Shown here in pieces: positions 1 through 49,540 of a stretch of 49,603 nucleotides of DNA (position 1 is the first letter of the stretch; each line of letters starts with the position of its first letter). A program made the position numbers and the translations under genes. Origin of the DNA: Cirrosporium novae-zelandiae (Eukaryota). The notes under the pieces are model-generated. The model worked only from the letters and a program-made list of their open reading frames with translations. It was not told the DNA's origin and ran no database searches. The stretch is taken from positions 62,001 through 111,603 of the forward strand of contig JAPETS010000060.1 in NCBI GenBank assembly GCA_026023565.1. Direction: 5' to 3'.

Positions 1-900
1 GGCTGTGAGTGTTGAGCATTCACTAATATTACCTTACATCTTGAGGGCAGTGTTAATTTTTTATACTAGTATCTGACTTTATACATTGTAAGGGAGGGTA
101 TAGTGTTGAAATATTTCCCCTACCCAACACTGTAGCCATCCTAATTAGTGTAAGTTCAGTATTCTGCGTACGTATTCGGGGTTGGGAATGGACCAGACCG
201 ACCAGGCCAACCTGTACGTATTATTAATCAATGAAGTCTCCCCTCTATCGCCTTGTCCTCCACCACAACCATACTAATAGAGACAAAACAGGATGGGTAC
301 TACTCGATAACCCCACCTGAAATATGGGATCCAGTCCTCATCTTGAGCTCCAACATGTTTCCTCCTTAACAGCATCCCTATGAAAATCCAACCTCTTTAT
401 ATTTAAAGCCCCAGAGTCACAAGGCAGTAGCGTTATAGACCATTCTAAATATCAATTTCCCACACTACCATGTTTATCTTGTTCCTAGAGTTTCATAGAA
501 CGAACAACAAAGCTACTTCCACTTCCAAAGTTATGCTCTCGAGTTAAGAGAATGGAGGCTTGGAATCCCCTACAAACGGGCTCTAAACCAGCCTTTACAA
601 AGATTTTAGTTATTATGATGTTATCTTTGCACTTTCCCTAAGTTTTGAGATCGAGGGGAGTATGATTCTCCGGTCTGAGATGATTAATGCCAAGCACCCC
701 TTCCAGGACAATTATTGCTTCTGGACTAAGTAGCTCCAAATTCCTAGCGATCAGTCATAATAAGATTCTCTGTCTCGAAAGCTTGCCCAGGCGTAAGAAA
801 CGTAAAAGAATGGGAGAAATAATCACGCCGAGAGTTGGAGGAGCCTTCATAAAGGAGGTTCGATGTTGATGCGTAAGCCTACAGGTGGAAAGACAAAGAC
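1..900 (-). pseudogene. Degenerate, probably RIP-mutated gene remnant of unknown family; may continue past the left edge
   Basis: Minus-strand protein-like stretches are broken by TAA/TAG stops, e.g. GNMLELKMRTGSHISGGVIE*YPSCFVSISMVVVEDKAIEGRLH* (~363-230). Intron-like signals (...CTAATTAG, GTAAGG) lie near 140 and 35. Region is TpA-rich. Confidence 0.35.
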
Positions 901-1310
901 ATGGTTGATAGTGCAAAAAAGAATAACAACAAGGCCCAGGCTCTAGTTCAAGGAGAGTAGACTACGTTCGATATGGAAACGAATAGTCCTAGCCGTAAAG
1001 GGGGTGGGGAAGAGGGAGAGGTTGATCCATTCTACCGATACTTGAATACGGAAAGGGTATTACCTGAGCCAGAGAATATATTTCTAGATTGAGTTATCTC
1101 TATAGATAACTGCAGGTCTTTGACTTGGACGCCATAAGCCACATAGGGGAGAATAACGAGGGTAATTAGATACTTTTCCTCCTTCCATATAACAATTTGT
1201 GGTCCCATTGTTCCCCGATCATGTTAATTAGTGTGATTAGCTTCCAAACCATCCTAATTACCGCCTTCACCACGGCCCCATCGATTTCCTTGCCCTTCTC
1301 AAAGAACCTC

Positions 1311-2947
1311 TTACGCAGTATGGGAGGAGTTGTCTAAAAAAGACATCCGCCTAGCTCTCGAGTAAGGTATCCTTTTCGCCTTCTGAGTTCTAGTCCACTC
1401 CTCCTCTGCCGCCGCAATCTGCGAATTCCGAATCAAGTATCCAGCAAACACAGTCTCCCAGCCTCCGTTACTTGCAATAAAGATACTTGGGAAGAGCGTA
1501 AGCTCCACAGGATCCTCGAGCGGCGGTGTGATTGGAGTAGCCGTAGGTCTTGTGGCTGTGCTTTTGGGTGAAGTTGGAGCCGAGTGGTTGGAATCGCATG
1601 GCAGAAGGATGGTCCGCCAAATTGTCATATCGGTCTGTGTAACTTCGAGGCTGGCCTCGAGCCTCACTTTGCTTATTTGGGCCTTGTGCCAGAGTTGGAC
1701 GGCCTCTTTGATCAGATTTCTCAATTCGGGAAGAAACGTCTCGTGAGTTCCTGATGTCATTAGAGGAGCGAGGGTGACATCAGCATCCTGGACCACAGAG
1801 GATATCAGCTCTTCGGACGATTGCTCCTGGATACCTCCAGCTGATTCGGAGAGAAGTATTGCTCTACATAGAGATTCTTTAGTGACGTCTATTTCAGCCT
1901 GTTGGACGAGAAAGTCGTATAGATCTCTGGCCGTACGTGGGACACGTTTAGGTGTAAAAATATCGCGGGTAATCAATGCACTTAGGACTGCCATGGCAAT
2001 AGTCATCCTCACATTCTTCGCTGCCGTTGAGTTTGAACAAGGTATGTGCAGCTCAGACTCAAAAAGTGGCAGAGAATGGAACCATTTGAACCAATCGTCC
2101 TGTCCCTAAGTGTAACGAGTACAATGTCAGTATATATTTATAGACCCGAGGAAATATATCATTGTAGGTCCTAGATGATTTGGCACCAGACCTTAAGGAT
2201 ATGATCAGGAAGATCTTGTGCAAAACATCTTTTACAAAAAGAACTTAGGTGCTTCCATAACTCCCCCATTTCATTATAACTAGATAACAAGACCATGAAT
2301 CAGCAAGTATACGGATATGCAGAGGATTGAAACACGTACAAATCGACTACTTTTAATTGTTCAAGAGGGGAGCGGTAGCTCTCCCACTTACGCAACTCGC
2401 CCCGACACTCGTCCACCGTTCTCCGTAGGCCATTGGCTTCTTCTTCCTTTTGATCCAGGGTACTTTGGAACCCTTTGGTCTTTTCTTTCAGAATTCCTAT
2501 CTGTACCCGCAGGTCGTCCAGTTCCTTTTTCTTCTTGTTAAGTTCTTTGCCCAACCTTGCTTCCTCATCTCCAAGCCTTTTGATTTGAGTCGCATCGCTA
2601 ATTTTCTCCTCCTCCAAAGTATGTCTAGTTCGTTTTAAATTCTTATTTTGCTCTTCCAATTCGGCAATCCGTGAGGAGTCGGTCCTAGCTTGGATCGTAA
2701 GAGTATCTTTGAGTCCAGCTATTTCTTTGTTCATGTCCTTCAGTTTGGCTTCCTGGGCGGACAATTTTTCGACTAGTTTCCCTTTTTCGAGGTGATTGTT
2801 TTTGTTCCTCAACCAATTTTCAACAGACTGAAGAATTTGGTGCACATCTCCATTTGCTTTCTGGTCTTCGACTGAACAATTGTGGATTGTTGACTTGGAA
2901 ACCGGAAGAGTGGTGTTGTTCGGGAGGCCCTGCACTACCGTAGACAT
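1311..2947 (-). CDS. Fungal coiled-coil protein (family often auto-annotated 'MEI5-like'), 3 exons
   Basis: Exons 2947-2340, 2279-2192 and 2105-1311 join in frame across GT-AG introns with CTGAT/CTGAC branch sites. N-terminal heptad coiled coil, then IPCSNSTAAKNVRMTIAMAVLSALITRDIF and a C-terminal LFPSIF motif. Confidence 0.7.
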
Positions 2948-4731
2948 TTTTGAAAGAGCTCACCGGCCTTATGTGGTACTTTGAATCCTGATTAGTAAAT
3001 ACTAACGTCTGATAAATTTGCAATGGTGGTGAATCCAAAGCAAAAACTACTTGGAAAGTTAGACTCATGACCAACAGATATAGTTCAATCTCACTAATCA
3101 GTTTCCCCCTGCTGGATCAAGAATGGGAAGGCTTCCGGATGAATTAAAAGTGGTAGGCAGTGTAAGTTGATTCCTGTATATTGGTCCTTGAAACAATATG
3201 AATTTACAATGTTGATGGATAAAGTGCCGCAGTAAAAAGCATCCAAACTTGCCAATCAATTCTGAACAAGCCATTTATATATCCAACGCACCCCTTGTTA
3301 CTCTCCTCGATCCATGTTAGCACGGTATTGCCTCTCGAAAAGGCCTCCCGGTCGTATTATAGCTTCACCTAGCAACTTCCTTCAAGGATATCGAACATAT
3401 AGAAGGAAGCCAGGGGGTGCAGTCTGTGAATACCAGCGGGAAACGCGTCTAGCGCAAAGACTCTGCCGACATGATTTGCTTGAAACCTGTTTTGAGTTTG
3501 AGGCTAACTGCGTATGAAGGCAATTGCATATATTATACAGTATTAGATTCCGGCAAGCAATGACACCTACCTTGTTTATTGGCAAGCGGATATCATAACC
3601 GCCAAAGTAGATGAGTGACCTTTTGAGAATAGGTTTCTGCTGCGGCCTGACCACTCTAATCATTTTTCGTTATCGACAAGACCCTGTGGTTCGGTGCCCA
3701 ATGTTAACAGACGGGAGAAATAGAAGCAAGACCACGTCAATAGACAGGAGGGATCTTTTAAAATGTAAAGTATTAGAAGAAAATGCGTGCATAGTAAATG
3801 TTAATTGAAGTGAAATTAACGCTCTGATCAACCGTTCGATCGGCATCGAGAAGAGAGTTCATTCACTGTTTTGAGAGCCCTCGGCCACTCATTGTTGCCC
3901 ACGTAGGTAGCCTTGTAAATCATTTCTGCGGGGTTGCAGGCAGCCTCACATTTTTACCTCATAACCCGATATAAATATAACGCCACCGTAGAAAGTATGC
4001 GTCCCTATAATTGATAGAAGCCAGGACTCCCTTACGGCTACAGATCCCATAAGAAATGACAGCCCGTATGCGCATGCTAAGCCACACCTGCACTATTGTC
4101 GTGAATCCCCGACAGCTCCGCGATTTTGGTTGGATGCAAGACTACTCGAGTACATTCACAATGTAGACGGTACATGCGGGGAAGCACGTCATAAGTGGGA
4201 GAGGGGTTCCTTATAGGAAAAAGGAAGACGAGAAGGTCAGCATTCGGTTTTGTATTACAACAGACCCTATAAGTTATATATTTTATATTATATGCATCAT
4301 TGGAGTCTGCAGTGCGCTATTTACGCTATTTGACCTAGTCTTTGACAATATTATAATATAGGTAGTATATTATAGCAAAAACAGCCATTTCCGTAAATGA
4401 TAAGAAGAGACCCCCTAACATGATAGGCTTTTCTACCTCATACCAGTCACTAAAGGATTTACTAGTTTGAAAGAAGGGCGAAAGACCAGGGGCTACGGCC
4501 TAAGGAGAAGCTGCAAGACAAATAAACCTATAACAACCCATAATGGGATAGATTAACGGCTAGACCCAAGGGCTGGAAGTAAGCGGAATGAGCAAACTCA
4601 CTCCAGTATCCGATAGAGCTATTAGCATGACAGTAAAAAGATTACACACACATACGCCTCTGTATTTGCTTTCCATCAGCATCATGGATACTCAACGTAC
4701 GATATCCCAAATCCAGCGCTGGTATAAAACA

Positions 4732-5103
4732 TCACTGTGCTTCAAGCTTCTCTTCTGAGATGGAAAGTATACGTCCATAGCAGCCATTACACAAGGGTTC
4801 GTTCCATTGGCCCATCGTAAAGGCTACTAGCTTCGATGTTTTTTTGCGACCGCAGCGATTGCATGTAAAGTCTGTTCTCTTGGAAAGTCGATACAGGCAC
4901 AAAGAGCCACGTTTGGGATACTGCTTTTCTACCTCTAAATGTGGCGGCACAGAGCTTTGAGTTTGGTGGTTCATGAGGGACACTTTGGTTGTAGCCTCTA
5001 GGGCTAGAGTCTCAAAGTTGGCTTCGGGATAGACTCGTTTAACTTGGGAGAAAACTGTAGAATAATTACTACCTAGAACTAGAACAATGTTGATCTTGTG
5101 CAT
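4732..5103 (-). CDS. Small protein with a putative C2-C2 zinc finger; start uncertain
   Basis: Open frame with FTCNRCGRKKTSKLVAF...WNEPLCNGCYG (two CxxC pairs). First in-frame ATG is at 5103; an upstream exon is possible. Confidence 0.65.
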   Translation of the reverse strand: MHKINIVLVLGSNYSTVFSQVKRVYPEANFETLALEATTKVSLMNHQTQSSVPPHLEVEKQYPKRGSLCLYRLSKRTDFTCNRCGRKKTSKLVAFTMGQWNEPLCNGCYGRILSISEEKLEAQ

Positions 5104-5649
5104 TAGACTGTAGTACCTGCTGAAAGGTAATCCTTTGCTTGAATTCTTGGGATAGTGCGTGAGCTCGGTACTCAAGACAGAGATGCGTGGTGTTGTGGTG
5201 TTGGAGATTAGAGTAGATTGGTACTGATGGAACTGTTAAAGAAAGATTTCTTGATTGATTAATGGTCTCTCTAGTTGGGTGATGGAGGGACATATATAGA
5301 GGATGATGATCCCAATCCTCCGTATTTCATGACTGAAAGGTTTGTTCCGGGTAGTATACCTACTACGTCAATGGCTAGCGTAAACCCACGCCCTCCACGG
5401 CTCTCCCATTTGCTGCACATAAGCAGAAATGATGCAGTGCCGCGATCATGAGGATAAATAAAAGCTTTGTTAGGAGATCAATTGAATAGTTGGTACGAGC
5501 GTTCGGTAAAGTGAAGCTCCAAAAAAATATTTATCATGCCATCTAGACGAAGGCTCGACGTTTATATGGTTTAGAAAATTGCGATCTTCTTGCTCGATGG
5601 CTTCACAGCACTGAATTGCACCAATCAAGTCTTTTATTGGCGTTATTCT

Positions 5650-6930
5650 GGGATAAGCCTCTAAAATAGCTAGAATGACACCTTAGCGTTCGCGTCGAGT
5701 ACGAGAATCGAAGTTTCTAGGTATTTATCAGGTCCAACTCTCTTATGAAGGGCGACGAGGCCTTGGAGAGTGGATCGGCTTTGAAAACTTCGGAGCGAAA
5801 CCGGTAGGAATAGAGTACGTGCTAAGCGGTCACGTTTAGGCGTCCTATAATGGACACAGTTGAAAAGGGTATGGTGGTGATCGCCTTGGCTGACTCAGTC
5901 AGGACCTTGGGATGGATGTTTTCGAGGCTAACTTTGGCGGTACGTTGAATCTTGTAGGGTGAGCTACTACCATCTCCAATATAGTTCTCTTCATCGAGCT
6001 TGAATCTTTGGCTGGTCTCTTCGTTGATTGTCGTCTTGATATTCTCATTTAACGTTACAATCTCCTCTCCGAGGGCAATGAATTCCAGCCGCTGCTCAAA
6101 TTTATACTACATCCACACTGAGGGTGATTATCGACACTTATGGTAATACCACAGCGATATCTCACGCATGTCGTCGATATGGTCCTTCCAGAACGGCTGA
6201 TTAAGAAAACCGTTTTGGCTGTCGACGCTCCTTTCCGCCCTATAATACGTCGGGAACGTGTTATGATCCTAGTGTTTCCCCGAAACGGAGGATTCTGTCA
6301 ACTCTACCATCTAGAATGATGAGTAACAGCAGTAGTCCATTTGCCACTAAACCCCACCCGAGATGCTTCGTAGTCGTACTCATACCAGTCATTCTCCCAG
6401 ATCCCACTCACTAGAATGTGATATTTCTGTAGAGTTAGTGAGTGTCATTTTCCATACGTAGTGAGAAGGACGAGTTTTATTTTACGAGGCCTTTGATATA
6501 TTTTCATTTGTTAGTAATCATATGTTTATCATTAGATTAGAGAGAATAGTCAGATGACATTGTACTTACATAGGTACGTGGTTTCTTTACGTTCAGGGGT
6601 AGGTTCGCTAGAATCTCGTTCCTAACCAGAGTGAAATGCTATTTGTAGCTGCTTCGTACAGTATCAACGCTCGGCTCGTTCTCCAAGTCATCTTGGGTTC
6701 CTTGGGTCACGAACTCGGCAAAATGCTTCAAAGTAGAAAAATGACAAGGGTTTGTGCCTAGACGGTACTTTTTATATTTATAAAAATGGGATCGAGACTT
6801 TAGAATAGTTCTCACTGCAAGGTATATGTGTTCAGAATGGGAAGAGCATACTCCCACTATATATCTATCTGCTTTTTGTACAGTACAAGGGAAGAGAGTT
6901 GCACCTCGTATTGACTGACAGATCGGCACT
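5650..6930 (-). pseudogene. DUF3435 tyrosine recombinase (Starship captain) pseudogene with stops, frameshifts and an internal deletion
   Basis: Ordered minus-strand motifs: STLKHFAEFV..EPSVDTVR; intron (GTAAGT ~6569); YIKG; LTLQKY..IWENDWYEYDYEASRV; MVELTESS; H*DHNTFPTYYRAERSVDSQNGFLNQPFWKDHIDDMREISL; *YKFEQRLEFIALGEEI; AR*RELYW; TLFNCVHYRTPKRDRLARTLFLPVSLRS. These match remembered DUF3435/FluG-annotated captain motifs. Confidence 0.8.
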
Positions 6931-7439
6931 AAAATAATGAATATCGAGACGCTAGAGATATAGAGTATAATTGAGATGGGGAACTTATTAAGGTGAACGA
7001 GAAAGAAGCGGACGAGGGACAGAATTTAACAGATGGGAACGTCGCAACAGAGAGCTGAATAAGGTATGAATTGCAAGGTAGAATCCCAATTTTACCTTTG
7101 CGATATGATACAAGGGTGGATTAGGGGACCTATAATGATACGGGATTAATTTTGATACCGGAAGTCCATTCTGGCTCCCTTGGGCCTGCTCGCCAGAATA
7201 AGCACTCTAGACAGCGGCACGACCAGGATGGGTTCCGTTTCAATAGCACACGGAGGATGATGTAGGCCATGAGCTGCTGGGGCTTAGTTAGAAGAGGTGA
7301 GGGGTGGAGAGCGCCCATTGATGGGTGGGTGTGTATGAGTTAGGCAAGCACACAGAACTCCGTTAGAATTATGGTTAAACAACTCTAGTTCTGTTAAATA
7401 CTACAGCCTAATAAAGCAGCAGGTTTCATTTGATCTCTT

Positions 7440-8354
7440 GATCAGGGATCAGATCAAGGTTCCACTTTCTTACCATTCAGATTTTGGAATGTCAGATTAT
7501 ATTTTTAAGATCCTTGTGTTAGCTGCCATAAATACCAGGTTGGGTTCGATTCCTAAGAGCGCTAGTGATTGGTCAGACTGGTGTCAGTGTTCTTCTCCTC
7601 GCAAAATCAAAGCTTGTTATCAGGAGGCTCTTTTCTTGAGCAAGTATTAGGAGGCTTTAGATCATAGTGAAAGCCGATCGAGGGTTCGCTAGCGATGGGA
7701 GTCTTCAACCCGAATTCGTGGATTTATTCCATCGCATAAACGTTCCTTTGCATGTATCGATAAAAGTTCTCGTTTGATTGGAAGTAAGAAGGTTGGCGGG
7801 GTGGTTGTAGAAGGTTCTCCAGGCTGTGATGTCTCAATTGCTCGAGAGCTTGAGAGGACGCCTTTCACGTTGGAACTCCAACTCTAGGCTTTTAACCAAG
7901 CCCGAAACCTATAGCGGCTCTGGGTAGAACTCTTTACAAGCAAAGACCTATTGCTGCAACACACATTAGAATCTTCTATTCACATTGATTCGGGTTCTAA
8001 CCTGTTCATCGATGGATTGTTTTCAAAGTCATGGCAACGATAGTGAATCCACGGTTTAGTAGCCTTACCATAAGCTCCTAATAATCTCTTGGAATATCGT
8101 CCTCTCACACAAGGACCATTCATTGCTGCTGAGCAAAAGATAATCTATCTTCATTAGGAAGCCGTGTCAAGACTAGTGCGCGGAAAATTCAACGGCAGTT
8201 TGCCATTATAGACCTCATTCTCGAGGAGCACGTTGATGTAGGATTCCCGATGCGAGAAAAGAAGGATGAAGAGCACCTTGAGAACTTTGAAGAAAATAAT
8301 TTGATTCTTTGCATGTTTATGCTCATTCAGATCAAGCTCCTCAAAGTCGCTCAC
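7440..8354 (-). pseudogene. Protein kinase pseudogene (fungal accessory kinase type)
   Basis: Frameshifted remnants in kinase order: N-terminal KVLFILL..INVLLE..KLPL..SFAQQQ; LGAYGK..WIHYRCHDF (Gly-loop region); EFQRE..ALEQLRH; LCDGI/IHEF; IGFHYDLKPPN (catalytic loop, ~7678-7646); LLITSFDFAR (DFG region); SDI. Confidence 0.65.
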
Positions 8355-9021
8355 AATTTCAAGACCAGTTGTGGGGGTTGTCGAGCTTAGCTCGCAAGCC
8401 GACCGAGGCTCGTCACCTCGTCTACCACAGCAAGTTAAGTCGTGTCTCTGTGAGTCACGATGAATGACAGAAAGCGTGCCAGTAGTATGTACCTAGGTAA
8501 TTAATTTACAGAGCAAAACAAGACAAGGCAAGGCCAGGCAAAACATCTTCTGCCAAGTTTCAATGATTGGTATCATGGTTACTTTAACTTTATGCCTATC
8601 TACGAGTCCAATGATAACCAACAGTAATACCGCAATACATGACCGCTACGACCGACAACCAAGGGCAACCTCTCTCGTCAAGTCTACCCCGTCATTCCCA
8701 ACCAAAGTTTATGGCAACTATGTATGGCTGCCAGCTGTCTACCACGGCAAGGCACTTACAGAAGCTTGAGGCATCCTATCATTCCATGATTCTATGCAAG
8801 ATTCCGAAGTAGCTCATATCCTACTAATCTAGACTACATAGCTAGAATTGACCAATGCATCCTCTCAGTCCTCTCAAACAACCTTGACAAATACTATTCT
8901 CTAAGTTGCCGCACAAGGATAGGTTAGGACTAAATATGCAGGTACTGGAGAACTGGGAAATTCATGCCCAAGAAGCCTGAGAAAGCATCTGGAGGCTTCC
9001 AATTCTCACCAACTTTCCATC

Positions 9022-11258
9022 ATGTTTACTCAAGAAAAAGTCTCTGATATCTTCTCCACTGCGCTAACCCAATATCATCATGTCATCATCCAAGAGCAGC
9101 AGCAGTTCGAGGCCAGTCTTCCTCGCAATGGCAAAAATAGACTACAAGATGCTGATATCGACTACGAGAACGACTTAAGAGTCCGAGCAGAAGTTATTGA
9201 AACTGCTCTTTCCTACATTGACAAGATTTCATCTCAGACAGATTCTCTGACCAATCTGTTTTCCGACCTCCGTCAGAATTCACATAGTATACCACCAAGC
9301 AAGGTTGGGCATCAAATCACCGTCGAAGACAACGAACCATTCATCGACCCAATTTCTGGTATTTGGATATCACCCAATACACCATTTTCTGCAGGGCCTT
9401 CAAAACGCAGCTCCTTGCTGCCGGAGGTAAGAGCATTTTTAAAGAGGTCAACTTAAAGATAGCCCTACTATAAACTTCCAGTATCATGAGCCACGTTCTG
9501 ATTCCAAACTCTGCTCATTCAGAGCGAAAAATCCGTCAATGGGGTAGATAAGCCTCTATTTCCAAATCCTCCGCCGATATCTTCCAACCCTAGCGACACA
9601 TTACGATCCGCAGCTCCAGCGGATATAAACCACATTTCGACCCAGTTAACCAGTACGCTCCTCTCCTTAACCTCATCTGCACCAACAATTCCGCCTTCGC
9701 CTATAAAACAAAGCGAGATTCTACAGCTAGAGGAAGATCGATATCCAAGAGCGGAAGCGTTACATGTTATTCCTACGGCAGGAGACAAATATACGTCTCA
9801 AGATAATCGGTTCAATAAACCAATAGAGCAAGGTAATTGGACACCACAAAGCATGAATTCGGACGAAGAAATGCAATCTCAATCTTCTATTACGCAAAAC
9901 GGCAAAGCTAACATTGCCCAAGAAGTCTCTGGTGAACAAGAATTTGAATTCAACGAGCTTACTCAAGAATATCAAAAGATACAAACAAATTCGCAATCCC
10001 AGGTGCCACGGCAAGAAATTGAATCGAAGGAGGTCAACCCATTAACAGAGTCCCCTCCCATCCATTCAGCCATGGAGGAGCCAGACCCGTCGTTCGTGGA
10101 AGCAACCAGACTCCAAGCCAAATTTGATGCTGAAGATCGGGCACTCAGACTACAAGGACTGTATGCAAAGCAACTTGAAAGCAGCCAGAGGGATGATGAC
10201 CGACCGCAAGACGAGCACAACATCGAAGCTCAAGCACTTAGAGAACAAGAGATGTATGCGAGAAATCTAGCAATTCAAGCAAGGGAGGAATTTGACCAGC
10301 TGCTTCAAGATCAAGAAACTTTTGCCCGCAACTTGCAGGATCAGTTCGAAATTGAAGGGCGAGCCGAACTTGAGAGGCTACAGAGACATTTTAATGTTGA
10401 AACTAAAACCAACGTGCAACTCAAAGAACAGGAACTTCTAGCTCGTCAGCTACAAGATGACGAAGAACGGGAGCAGACTATCCGCGAGGCACAGAGACTC
10501 CAGCAACAGTGGGATGCCGAAGACCTTCAACGAGCACAAGATGCGAAACTTGCTACTGAGGAGAATGAAAAATTCAAATTGATAGAAGAGGAGGAGCAAA
10601 GAGAAAAGAGGGAGGACGAGGCAAGGAGGAAAGCCCGACAAGCTGAATGTGTTGTTTGCTCGGAGAACTACGACAAGGTTGACATGGCTGTCCTGAAATG
10701 CCAACACGCTTACTGTATTGAATGTCTCCGACGTGAGTGAGCTCCTTCCAACCCCAGAGTATAACATGTTCTAATGACATTAAAACAGAGGGAGTCAATA
10801 CGGCCTTGAAGGACAAAAAGCCATTTCACTGCTGCAATGTTCGTGTTCCCATCGCCTCTTTCGCCGGAAAAACCGACGCTGCCCTCGCTGCTGCCTACGA
10901 CGCTATGCTCCTCGAGCGTGATACACCCGATCCTCTCTACTGCGCCAATAACCACTGCCCAACCTTTATCCCACCGTCCTGCGTCAAGGCCGACGTTGGC
11001 ACGTGCCCTCAGTGCGACAGCCGCACCTGCAAGCTGTGCAAGAAGCTCGAGCACCCCGACGTTTGCGATCAAGACCACGATGGCGTGGAACTCATGCTCA
11101 AAGCCGAAAAGGAAAAATGGAAGCAGTGCCCACATTGCCATATCCTCGTCGAGAGGAACGAGGGTTGCTTGCACATGACGTGTCGCTGCGGCACAGAGTT
11201 CTGCTACAACTGCGGACGAGATTACGGTGTATGTCCTGGAACTTGCCCGAGGAAGTGA
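9022..11258 (+). CDS. RBR (RING1-IBR-RING2) E3 ubiquitin ligase with long coiled-coil N-terminus
   Basis: Exons 9022-9426, 9523-10732 and 10789-11258 join in frame. RING1 CVVC..CQHAYCIEC..PFHCC; IBR YCANNHCPTF..CPQC..TCKLCKKLEH; RING2 WKQCPHCHILVERNEGCLHMTCRCGTEFCYNCG. Confidence 0.92.
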
Positions 11259-32843: not shown

Positions 32844-34821
32844 ATGAATCCGTCAGAGATGGATCATGGTCATCAGGAGGAGGATTATGGCCATCATCAG
32901 TGGACCGATATAGGTGGATATCAATCTTCGCAACATCCGTCACCGTTGCATGAATATAATGCTTATGGCGGCTTCATACCAACTCCGCCGAATCCATTGT
33001 CCATGGGTTCCATGTATGATCGCACCATTCCGCCTCCCTATGTTCCTCCGCAATTGGTGATGCCCATTTCCCAATGGCCGAGTATGATGAATCCCACTGC
33101 AACATATCCTCCACCAATTTTGCCAGCGACCCCAGTATCCGCCCCAATTTCCACCCCAGCATCTGCCTCCACCACCACCACCAACCATTCCTTGCCCACC
33201 CCGACCCCGCGACGGACCCTGACCGATATGGACCGACGTCGAATGTGTCAATATCATGAGGACAATCCGACCGTCAAGCAGACAGAAATCGGAGGCAAGT
33301 TGAACCGTACTTCTTTCTTTCTTCTTCTCAAGCTAAGGAATTTACAGCCATGTTCGGAGTTGAAAGAAGGTACTTGGAGAGCGCAGGGTTCGGAGACGCG
33401 GGTTTACCGTTCTGCAACTGACGAAATTTTTCTCTAGTACGGTTTCCAAAGTCCTCCGCCAAAAAGAGAAATATCTTTTTCCTGATGATGGAAGCCGATC
33501 TCCCATCAAAGGCAGATCAAAAGGCAAATCGCCGGACATTGAAAGAGCTCTATCAAATTGGGCGCGTAATCAGCAGAAGCAAGGTCTTCCGGTAACCGAT
33601 CATGCTATCCGGGAAAAAGCCCGCTTCTTTGCGTCCAATGTGAGCAACTCTGAAACCCATCTAAAAATCACCAGCAGTGCTTGGCTGGAGAAATTCAAGC
33701 AGAAAAACAATCTCAGCGCAAAATCGCGCAAAGGATCTGTGGTTTCGGTGATTGTGGATGAAGATAGCGATAGGAAATCCAACTCCAACCCGGCATCAGC
33801 CACCCAGACTCCGAATGGAATTTCGCCGGTATCACCGGCTCCTGCCATTTCACCGTCGCCTAGATCTCCCCCACCAACCATCCAAGAAGGCTGTTTTATC
33901 AAACACGAATCCCCTTCATCGATGATTGATTTTTCCAATCCATATGGCCACAGCCACTCTCAAAGTAGCGCCTCGGTCACCAGCGCATTTTCCGATGCCC
34001 CAACACTTCCAAACCAGGGGCCCACAAGTCCCACTTCCCCCTTCTTTTCGCCTGATCCGTCAGTATCAGCAAGCCCATTTACAACAAATGCTCGTCTTCC
34101 ACCGCTCAGCTCTAATTCCATCCGTCCCCGGAGTCAAACGTTTCCGATTATTGGAGGAGTGGAGCAGCCCATGCCGCAGATGCTTTCTCCGCCCACGTCA
34201 TCCGACACCATGTCCTCCAACAAACTCCTACAAACCTCGCTTTCCACGCCGGTCTTGGAATCGCCGCTGGAAGACGAAGCGGCAGCCTCCCAGATGTCTA
34301 CTCTGCTATCAATTTCCCCGCACCAAACCCTGAAACGCAACCATAGCTCCCCAAACGTATCCACCAACACAGTTCCAACAAAGAACATGCGTCCCCCGCC
34401 ACCGCCCCCATCAGCACCCCCCACGCTTTCTCAATCCAGCACCACACCCACCAGATCTAGTACCACAACACCAACACTAGGTCTCGGGATTGGGCTGCAG
34501 CAACCCCACACCCCGACGCAGGACGAGGCACGACGAGCCCTGGAAACCATCATGGCGTTTTTCCAACAGCACCAAAGTAAAATGATGGTAGAACCCCAGG
34601 AGTTTGTTACCATCGGCAAGCTCATGCAGAAGCTGGAGCTTGTTTCGCCGTCCAGTACCGGGGGAAGCAATCTGCCTGGCGGTCTGCATCGGATTGATGA
34701 ACAGGTCGTTGGGGGAGAGGAGATGGGCATGACTGGGATTGAAGAGATGGAAGGCATTATGGATGCCATGAACGGGGAAGAGCGCAGGGGCCGGAAGAAG
34801 AGGAGTATTTGTTCCGTATGA
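32844..34821 (+). CDS. CENP-B/Tc5-type double-HTH DNA-binding protein, no DDE domain; probable transcription regulator
   Basis: Exons 32844-33294, 33348-33369 and 33438-34821. PRRTLTDMDRRRMCQYHEDNPTVKQTEIGAMFGVERSTVSKVLRQKEKYL..PDIERALSNW..IREKARFFA..SSAWLEKFKQKNNL, then a Ser/Pro-rich tail. Confidence 0.9.
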
Positions 34822-46642: not shown

Positions 46643-46999
46643 TGAGTGGGTGTTGAGATGGTAGACGTCAGGAAGGGGGTTTAGTTTGGATATTCTATAT
46701 TATACAGTATATGGTGTGTATATATACACATATGCACACACCACTACATCGATATAAGCCCATACGCCCATAGCTTCATAAAAGAAAGGTTAATAAACCA
46801 GCAAGAACACCAAATAAATAAATAAATCTTAAATTGAACCAACAGCCCCCATGTTACGGTTCCCTATTAAGTTAGACTGCTAGGGCCATCTTTATAAGCT
46901 GAACTCCCTACCTGAGATTCTAGACCTTAGTCAACAATATCCACGCCAGGTACACCCTCCTATTAGGCATCGTAACATCCCCCCCCCTCCCCTCTTACA

Positions 47000-47719: not shown

Positions 47720-49540
47720 TAATATCGATCTTAATCTCGATATCCGAAACTCCCCCATCCTCCCCCTCCTCCTCCAAAAAAAAAAGAGGAAAAAAACAAA
47801 CGAAGAAAAAACAAAAGTGAATAACACCCCCCTAACCCTCTTGGATCCCCTTAACCACCAACTTAACCAAATAGAATTTTCTAACCAGACCCGACGATTT
47901 TTATTTCTTATTCTTTCTTGTTCTTTCTTATTCTTATCCCCACAAACCCCAGTACCACCAGCCCTACACCTCCCTCCCAGCACAATAGAAACTACTCTAT
48001 TGCCATTACCATTGCCATTTCCGTTTGTTGCAAATTATAAGAATAGCAGGATAGTGTATAGTACTATCCACAAAGAACCATGAAGAACCACAAAACTAAA
48101 AGGGGTGGAGGCTCACCTTATAAGGTGAGCCTAGGGTCTATGCCCTAATGGCCTAACCTAATAGGGAACCGTAACAGCTATGCTACATTATGCTATGCCA
48201 TACCATACCATGCTGCACACTTATTCGTTCGTCCGTCCGTTTTTTTTCTTTTCGTTTTTGAGGATTTTAGAATTTTTGTGGGGTTTGTAGGTTCTTATAG
48301 AGGATATTTATGGGGATAAATGGTGTTTGGAAGGAAAAGAAGAAGAAGAAGAAGAAGAAGGGGAAAAGGGGTAAAAGAAAAGGGAGGGTGTTGAATATGT
48401 GCTGTGTGCTGCGTAATATTTATTGTGTAATTGTTGGAAAGGAAGACGAGAGAGCTCGGAGGTAAGGGCTCAGGGTGAGAGTATCTAGCCCATCCATTCC
48501 ACCTCTATGCAATTAGCAGATATAAGGCGTGGGATATTTACGTTGTGTTAGATATGAATCTCTCTCTCTCTCTCTAGATAAATAAACACCCCCATCAAAA
48601 ACCCCTTCTTCAAAAAAAAATTAAACAAATAGAAAGGGTCATCTAGATATAATCGCCAAAAGAGACGATATTCGAGAAGAGGAGAAAAAATATTTTATTT
48701 CTCTGGATGGTTGGTTGTAGGGGTATGATGAGTATAGGAAGAATGAGTATTTAACGGGGTTTTTGAAAGGGATAAGTATTTTAATTGTGTAATATCCAGA
48801 ACCCTAAGGTTAGTCTTTTTTTTTCCTTTCTTCCCCCCTTCTTTCTCTTCCTTTCCCCCTTCCCTTGGTTTTTTCCCTCATAGAATCAACACACACTCAC
48901 GCACACACACACACCGTCACTCTCACCATTAGTACACTAGAGGGGTAAGAACAGCCAACACTCTTACCTACACTCCTTACACTCCCACAATATACCTATC
49001 TACCAACCCACCAACCTACATACCAAAACAAAAACCAAAAAAGAAATATAAATATAGAAAAATGGCTATAACGTAGACAGACAGACAGACAGGCAAGTTG
49101 GTAAGTGATAAAATAATAAGATAAAATAAATAGCTATTACTATTATTACAATTATTATTATTATTATTTACTACAGTAGAAGCCCCAACCCCTTTTTCAA
49201 GTTCTCTTTTTTTTTATCTTTCTTTGGAGAGGGGGAGAAGGAGGAGGAGGAGGAGGAGGAGGCAGAATGTAGAATTTAAAGATATGGAGGTCTAGGGGTT
49301 TAGGATTTTGGGGGTTAGGTAGAAGAGGGGGAGCGTTAGGGGGGGGGGGATAGAGGAGGAAAGGAGGAAAAAGTAGGGGAGGAAGGGAGCTAGCAGAAGG
49401 GGGGAGGATTAATGGTTGATGGTTGATGGCAATCACCATATCCATCCCATCATTCCACCCCACCATTCCATACCCATCTCGTTCATACACCCCCAAAAAC
49501 CTTCCAATTAATCAACCAAACCCAATTAATCCCCCCCCCC

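Follow-up and report, generated by a model that had tools for sequence, protein, structure and literature searches.

A probable decayed 5' portion of a captain-type DUF3435 tyrosine-recombinase element in Cirrosporium novae-zelandiae

Cryptons are small eukaryotic elements that carry just a tyrosine recombinase. Starships are giant transposons of the Pezizomycotina whose first gene, the captain, encodes a tyrosine recombinase of the DUF3435 family (PF11917), and which often carry auxiliary genes, DUF3723 and FRE among them. Their captain is transcribed inward, cargo genes span tens to hundreds of kb between two boundaries, and presence/absence polymorphism leaves an empty site in relatives. 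PLP and NLR genes are also described as frequent auxiliary genes of Starships, and the upstream boundary of an element is usually placed no more than 2 kb from its captain (PMC11162782). In the Starship Wallaby, premature stops are numerous in the captain, which is given there as a likely pseudogene, and 'derelict' is the recommended term for copies inactivated by repeat-induced point mutation (RIP) (PMC11162782). Fragmentary or pseudogenised captains make up a large share of those predicted: as reported in the starfish paper, the removal of sequences shorter than a quarter of the 812-aa median reduced a set of 10,771 to 8,369, and sequences missing more than one active site were also removed (PMC11162782), whilst a survey of lichen-associated fungi reports 4,128 predicted captains, 1,481 of them shorter than 203 aa and 1,139 lacking more than one active site (10.1101/2025.11.25.690456). 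In both sources, a sequence missing more than one of the six active-site residues is treated as a pseudogene (PMC11162782; 10.1101/2025.11.25.690456). Here we describe a relic of this family in a 49,603-nt stretch of the genome of Cirrosporium novae-zelandiae (contig JAPETS010000060.1, positions 62,001 to 111,603, forward strand), called the window below; positions are those of the window unless a locus is named. A first-pass annotation had read 5650-6930 as a derelict Starship captain with most of its catalytic core deleted, and had proposed that the cargo of an immobilised Starship continues left of the window.

The relic is very probably what is left, in decayed form, of the 5' portion of one inserted mobile element whose DUF3435 tyrosine recombinase is of the Starship captain kind, lying on the minus strand from ~7384 (securely from 7343) to 5739 (Table 1). 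The element pointed toward lower coordinates, that is, to the left. The stretch 5650-6930 corresponds to the coding remains, and a homologous leader reaches at least to 7343.

To relate the remains to known proteins, we used the stop-masked minus-strand frame 5650-6445 as the query in an exhaustive phmmer search of 1.84e9 representative proteins. There were seven matches (E 3.0e-12 to 8.5e-5), all on query residues 57-162, equivalent to window 6277-5960. PF11917 matches six of them at E <= 0.01, four with more than its gathering score of 25.8 bits; P0005 is the one relative without a PF11917 row. These seven predicted proteins are all short (94-367 aa), and we therefore consider annotated debris of this recombinase family to be common. 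The best match is P0004, itself a fragment of 259 aa, which its source names a hypothetical protein of Chlorociboria aeruginascens. Alignment A2 shows it passing from the region beyond the catalytic Lys almost directly to the His/Tyr region; the His-x-x-Arg stretch present in P0009 and P0010 is missing from it.

Starting from P0010, we gathered 14 full-length relatives (697-1033 aa, all with PF11917) and built from them a profile of 863 positions. Against the six-frame translation of the window, the profile gave colinear matches confined to this locus (5739-6779), with ~300 of the 863 positions represented in the relic. In a tblastn search of the whole window with 21 relatives, every match at E < 1e-3 fell at 5739-6477 on the minus strand. 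The relative used for the residue-level comparison, P0011, matches PF11917 with an E-value of 6.7e-26 over residues 149-500. We also scanned metagenome contigs with the alignment of the relatives, which returned 12 loci (L001 to L012); five metagenome loci with DUF3435 genes are 65-67% identical to the window at the DNA level over blocks of ~500 nt. The first-pass annotation had seen colinear DUF3435-like motifs spread across frames, and the profile and tblastn matches agree with it. An ESM Atlas search with a 46-aa stop-free frame was uninformative (best score 0.76, Ndr family cluster). Judged by these comparisons, the relic is homologous to the DUF3435 (PF11917) tyrosine recombinases and the similarity is not due to chance.

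Table 1. Positions of the leader, the coding remains and the profile matches in the window
Feature	Position	Strand	Details
Non-coding 5' leader	6916..7384	-	7343-6916 significant; 7384-7344 motif-level match to common edge (AGTTGTTTAACCATAAT)
Segment A, N-terminal coding remnant	6570..6869	-	P0011 residues 29-119, profile 52-107; on its own, E 0.11 by tblastn with P0011
Possible decayed 79-nt intron (GTAAGT...TACTAAC...AG)	6491..6569	-	Between segments A and B; read from the sequence
Segment B, W-x-x-D-W region (conserved)	6343..6480	-	P0011 residues 128-171, profile 129-185; one in-frame TGA
Segment C, MDYCCYSSF*MVELTESSV	6284..6340	-	P0011 residues 174-192; frame change from segment B
In-frame internal deletion junction	6283..6284	-	~170 codons lost: P0011 residues 193-362, profile ~195-364
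Segment D, SGKH*DHNTFPTYY...	5996..6283	-	phmmer E 3e-12 to 8.5e-5; profile 368-460, i-E 8.3e-10
Segment E, ...HHHTLFNCVHYRTPKRDRLARTLFLPVSLRS...	5739..6026	-	Profile 446-542, i-E 5.5e-13; tblastn with 17 of 21 relatives
Profile 52-107	6779-6615	-	i-E 0.2 in whole window; 5.4e-5 as single piece
Profile 129-185	6480-6310	-	i-E 6.9e-6 in whole window; 8.2e-10 as single piece
Profile 368-460	6274-5996	-	i-E 8.3e-10
Profile 446-542	6026-5739	-	i-E 5.5e-13

The coding remains can be followed as five segments (A to E) in the order of the family. Segment A contains one in-frame TAG, and the 128-aa open frame that holds it is without any ATG. Excising the intron-like stretch that separates it from segment B does not restore the frame; L001 and L003 likewise shift frame at this point of the profile. 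(A first intron guess, 6564-6427, was ruled out since homology to P0011 continues to 6477.) Segment B is 48% identical to P0011 over 44 residues, including WENDWYEY in the relic versus WQNDWYEY in P0011. Compared with the corresponding P0011 residues LQLCCYTSGRIGEFFESSV, segment C is identical at 9 of 19 positions, within a linked alignment set with an E-value of 1.1e-7; as a single piece, 18 of its residues match profile 177-194 with an E-value of 0.021. Segment D aligns with P0011 from ~363 to 445 (SGKH*DHNTF versus FAGHIDSSTF, the asterisk being a stop codon) and contains three in-frame stops, two of them at positions where the relatives carry Gln. After another frame change, segment E (P0011 residues 480-539) contributes four to five further in-frame stops, and the similarity ends with it.

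The largest lesion of the coding remains is the internal deletion between segments C and D. MVELTESSVSG (6310-6278) continues into KH* (6277-6269), DHNTFPTYY (6268-6242) and on to SVDSQ in one minus-strand frame without a gap, just as the first-pass annotation had reported; its expectation that a long segment normally separates these motifs was also correct, in that the intervening part of the profile is without a counterpart here. At the DNA level, the blocks on either side of the deletion, 65-67% identical to L004, are 706 nt apart in L004 and 17 nt apart in the window, so that ~689 nt of L004 are absent. To judge the consequence for catalysis, we assigned the active-site columns from the near-invariant columns of alignment A1 and the canonical order of the residues, which makes this a sequence-based assignment. 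The first catalytic Arg (R183 of P0011) aligns with a TAG codon; the catalytic Lys and the His-x-x-Arg motif (K229, H341 and R344 of P0011) fall within the deletion; and segment D retains the His and Tyr that align with H366 and Y376. Thus, two of the six active-site residues are kept and four are lost. A profile search of the PDB with A1 found no recombinase, the best matches (E 0.54 and 0.79) being unrelated.

Downstream of segment E the element cannot be followed. Profile positions 543-863, a Cys/His-rich C-terminal third, have left no trace in the window at either the protein or the DNA level; the 3' element DNA of the relatives (11.3-12.6 kb of L006/L008 and 1541-2246 of L002) gave nothing against the window at E <= 10, and no tblastx match at E <= 1e-3 linked window 1-5800 to any of the 12 loci. 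No 3' boundary of an element is recognisable in the window either. With at least ten in-frame stops, three frame changes and no start codon in total, the relic falls short of a full-length captain open reading frame. As read from its codons, it is unable to encode a recombinase and is functionless now, and with more than one active-site residue lost it is a pseudogene by the criterion of the field. That the stretch is a dead captain-type recombinase with its catalytic core deleted, as first proposed, is thus upheld by the phmmer, tblastn and profile matches and by PF11917 in the relatives.

Similarity to the relatives extends upstream of the coding region, which together with the edge motif below is new beyond the first-pass observation. 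With blastn, window 7042-7112 matches L001 and 7158-7227 matches L003. We built nhmmer profiles of the leader, i.e. of the sequence from the apparent element edge to the start codon of the loci. A profile from L001, L003 and L007 matches window 7343-6916 on the minus strand (E 5.6e-28), a non-coding stretch of ~430 nt, and a five-locus leader profile matches 7339-7006 (E 8.8e-20). The former match ends at 7343 (envelope 7348-7360). The left edge common to L006 and L008 begins with AGTTTTTTAA(C/T)CCGAAT in both, and that of L001, L003 and L007 begins with TGTT. At 7384 the window reads AGTTGTTTAACCATAAT, matching L006 at 17 of 24 positions. Leader homology thus probably ends at a shared 5' terminus of the element near 7384, a position that lies ~0.5 kb upstream of the coding remains and is derived from the edges of metagenome loci, its last ~40 nt being non-significant alone. 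A gene starting ~0.5 kb inside a probable edge would fit the placement described for Starship captains (PMC11162782).

A dispersed repeat of ~75-80 nt lies at 7517-7598, ~135 nt outside the proposed edge. Most of the 124 matching records of the sequencing run cover only this spot, and contigs of the run break here: 45 contigs at position 7554 are mostly 80-95% alike and have unlike flanks. The repeat holds a T-arm-like GGTTCGATTCC; searches with Rfam and ARAGORN identified it as neither a tRNA nor a known RNA family.

To characterise the decay, we counted window-specific changes at alignment columns where two relatives agree. There were 149 such changes in 625 columns: 74 were C>T or G>A, 38 were T>C or A>G, and 37 were transversions. 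By the next base, C>T changes affected 12 of 32 CpA, 15 of 58 CpT, 17 of 67 CpG and 4 of 40 CpC sites. Within the first 12 kb, the ratio (CpA+TpG)/(ApC+GpT) falls below 1.03 solely at ~5600-7200. Of 968 sliding windows, 38 attain the relic's composite index of 0.09, those elsewhere being located at ~31.5 kb (two windows) and at 45.7-48.2 kb (all others). This pattern fits mild RIP and equally fits plain neutral decay. Among the contigs of the sequencing run, which show presence and not absence, there was no second copy at least 80% alike over 5337-6670. Among the sequencing runs searched, this run alone contains the stretch, no RNA run is listed with it, and two other runs of the study each matched one short piece.

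Taken together, the history of the locus may have had three steps. The element would have arrived by site-specific integration; it would then have undergone GC-to-AT mutation, possibly by RIP whilst a second copy was present; and it would later have been shortened by deletions. On this reading, what remains is the non-coding leader and pieces of the recombinase gene, and what is lost is everything beyond profile position 542, the 3' end and any cargo. The original element may have been a giant Starship or, alternatively, a compact element with a single gene.

Several points weigh against reading the relic as the 5' portion of a captain-type element. The Pfam PF11917 model is silent on the relic itself (hmmscan with three stop-masked frames at E <= 1 and with six pieces at E <= 10), where the sole Pfam row is a weak DUF5785 match (E 0.045, below cut-off). 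Because the model is directly negative, family membership rests on the relatives themselves matching PF11917; the search with the PF11917 model, proposed as a check in the first-pass annotation, is negative. A word-based protein search with residues 240-460 of P0003 returned none of 794 candidates at E <= 0.01, and segments A and C are weak individually. At the edge, the last ~40 nt to 7384 come from a MAFFT alignment and the 17-of-24 motif, with a score that is not significant. The GC-to-AT bias is no more than about twofold, with a mild preference for CpA. Finally, the view of the locus stops on the left at window position 1.

Whether the lineage of the relic consists of compact elements can be addressed with L006 and L008, more distant relatives and the sole pair of relatives with long flanks. 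They have in common one unit of 4.43 kb (L006 8159-12591 and L008 8158-12588; 85.8% identity) with sharp edges and unrelated flanks: in L006, the left flank carries a helicase gene with AAA_11, AAA_12 and an RZ-finger and the right flank has normal GC; in L008, the left flank has 19-36% GC. The DUF3435 gene begins 446 nt from the left edge of the unit. We found no convincing terminal inverted repeats between the two ends of the L006 unit. The unit can be read in two ways, as a compact element with a single gene or as a captain module whose cargo differs between the loci. Because L006 and L008 share exactly one such unit and the window has the same edge motif, we tentatively raise the possibility, which we regard as somewhat doubtful, that the clade of the relic consists of compact, cargo-free DUF3435 elements made up of the recombinase gene, a conserved leader of ~0.45-0.6 kb and their own conserved 5' terminus. 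If this were true, 'solo captains' would be small autonomous transposons and not unrecognised giant Starships. Whether solo captains move by themselves is put as an open question in the starfish paper (PMC11162782), and, judged by title and abstract, we found no paper that settles the compact-element question. The leader, the edge motif and the 4.43-kb unit bear on this question as a side lead.

A separate observation concerns the overlapping loci L012 and L011. In L012, a stretch of 46 nt (144-188) that precedes the DUF3435 gene is the reverse complement (95.7%) of L011 1240-1285, right behind the gene, and L012 also has a 19-bp hairpin at this stretch. The inverted match may represent a terminal inverted repeat, or else a second copy arranged head-to-head.

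On the alternative in the first-pass annotation, the relic would be the captain of a giant Starship that is derelict yet still largely present. Its cargo would fill 1-5700, including the 496-aa frame P0025 (2947-1314, minus strand) and a small Cys-rich frame at 5235-4732, and would continue beyond the left end of the window. The orientation agrees with this: the gene runs leftward and starts ~0.5 kb inside the probable edge, where boundaries are usually within 2 kb of the captain (PMC11162782). TpA/ApT exceeds 1 at 1-1200 and 4000-5200. P0025, the left neighbour of the relic, is an orphan gene and not an obviously conserved core gene, its sole match among 2549 candidates of 463-2000 aa being its own 100%-identical record (a hypothetical protein); it would be better suited to accessory cargo than to a core gene, and the cargo claim is to this extent not refuted. 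However, the last third of the captain and the sequence that follows it in the relatives are absent, and therefore a deletion would have to have cut the element exactly where the cargo would start. The scanned frames at 1-8.9 kb (four open frames of at least 110 aa and seven shorter or neighbouring frames picked by hand, a set that multi-exon genes could escape) contain no Pfam domain save a weak, sub-cut-off DUF7685, and none of the Starship auxiliary domains PLP, NLR, DUF3723 and FRE was found in these 11 frames. The drop in the RIP-like substrate index is restricted to ~5600-7200, repeat searches found no direct or inverted repeat pair bracketing the relic, and L006 and L008 have just 4.43 kb in common. 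Nor was a 5S or tRNA target found: Rfam at gathering thresholds gave 0 matches over the whole window (no 5S rDNA and no tRNA), Rfam at E <= 1 over 6900-9000 gave two sub-threshold snoRNA rows, and ARAGORN found 0 genes. Bounded elements are also scarce next to 'solo' recombinases in the starfish paper, at 559 to 10,212 (PMC11162782). We consider a Starship with surviving cargo unlikely, and the proposed continuation of cargo to the left is unsupported.

The stretch might instead be a working gene, derived from the recombinase by shortening, splicing and domestication: the internal deletion keeps the frame, a 94-aa frame at 6106-5822 is open, and there is one intron-like stretch (6569-6491). 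The sequence already contradicts this, with at least ten stops spread across every homologous segment, three frame changes, no ATG in the frame of segment A and four of six active-site positions lost; past ~5996, the 94-aa frame no longer keeps the register of the family. We give this explanation hardly any weight. Chance resemblance without DUF3435 ancestry, for which the silent Pfam hmmscan and word-based search could be cited, is the least credible of all and is already refuted by the phmmer E-value of 3e-12 against 1.84e9 proteins, by colinear profile matches confined to one place in the window and by the DNA identity to five metagenome DUF3435 loci.

The surroundings of the relic are fungal chromosomal DNA with ordinary genes, and the GC content of the window is 0.39-0.54 throughout. 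Of 36 open frames of at least 110 aa scanned with Pfam, those identified encode an RBR-type RING/IBR ligase (8.9-11.3 kb), a GH5 cellulase, a GT90 glycosyltransferase, a cysteine dioxygenase, a DRG-type GTPase, a PXA-domain protein, a nucleoside hydrolase and an arabinofuranosidase. A 3.7-kb stretch that is devoid of long open frames and is bounded by a 167-aa frame (5235-4732) and the ligase gene holds the relic on its minus strand. This 167-aa frame, also on the minus strand, is directly downstream of the relic and ends in a CxxC...CxxC stretch; its DUF7685 match is weak (E 0.0052), scoring 17.1 bits where the cut-off is 27, and tblastn and the 14-sequence profile found no similarity between it and the Cys/His-rich C-terminus of the recombinase family.

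Two further places in the window are of separate interest. A 485-aa open frame at 33364-34821 on the plus strand has a Tc5 transposase DNA-binding domain (PF03221, E 3.2e-17); this pogo/Tc5-type transposase appears far better preserved than the DUF3435 relic. A pair of 35-nt inverted repeats (46852-46886 and 48142-48176) is 86% complementary, with 1.26 kb between the arms and an AT-rich stretch inside, and may mark a small DNA transposon. Apart from the relic, it is chiefly in the region around this pair, 45.7-48.2 kb, that the RIP-like composite index of the window equals or exceeds that of the relic.

For annotation, the 1.6-kb stretch is best treated as transposon debris and not as a gene. 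For method, searching proteins exhaustively and then building a family profile recovered a relic that is invisible to Pfam. Given how many predicted captains are fragmentary or pseudogenised in the published sets (PMC11162782; 10.1101/2025.11.25.690456), the relic is an ordinary member of this class.

Amongst described systems, the closest are the Starship captains. The relic resembles them in being homologous to PF11917-matching proteins and, if the proposed edge is right, in lying near, and pointing away from, an element edge (PMC11162782). It is unlike them in having two of six active-site positions, ~170 codons lost, at least ten stops, no C-terminal third and no second boundary recognisable in the window, and we liken it to them at the level of DUF3435. 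With derelict or degraded Starships it shares the kind of object; the published ones are defined with cargo and boundaries, whereas the relic is recognisable over just its 5' 1.6 kb. A likeness to Cryptons, on their generally known features, would follow if the 4.43-kb unit of L006 and L008 is a whole element, as the clade would then move as a single-gene element of Crypton size; in the starfish paper, three CryptonF sequences were used alongside the Starship recombinases, as distinct from them (PMC11162782).

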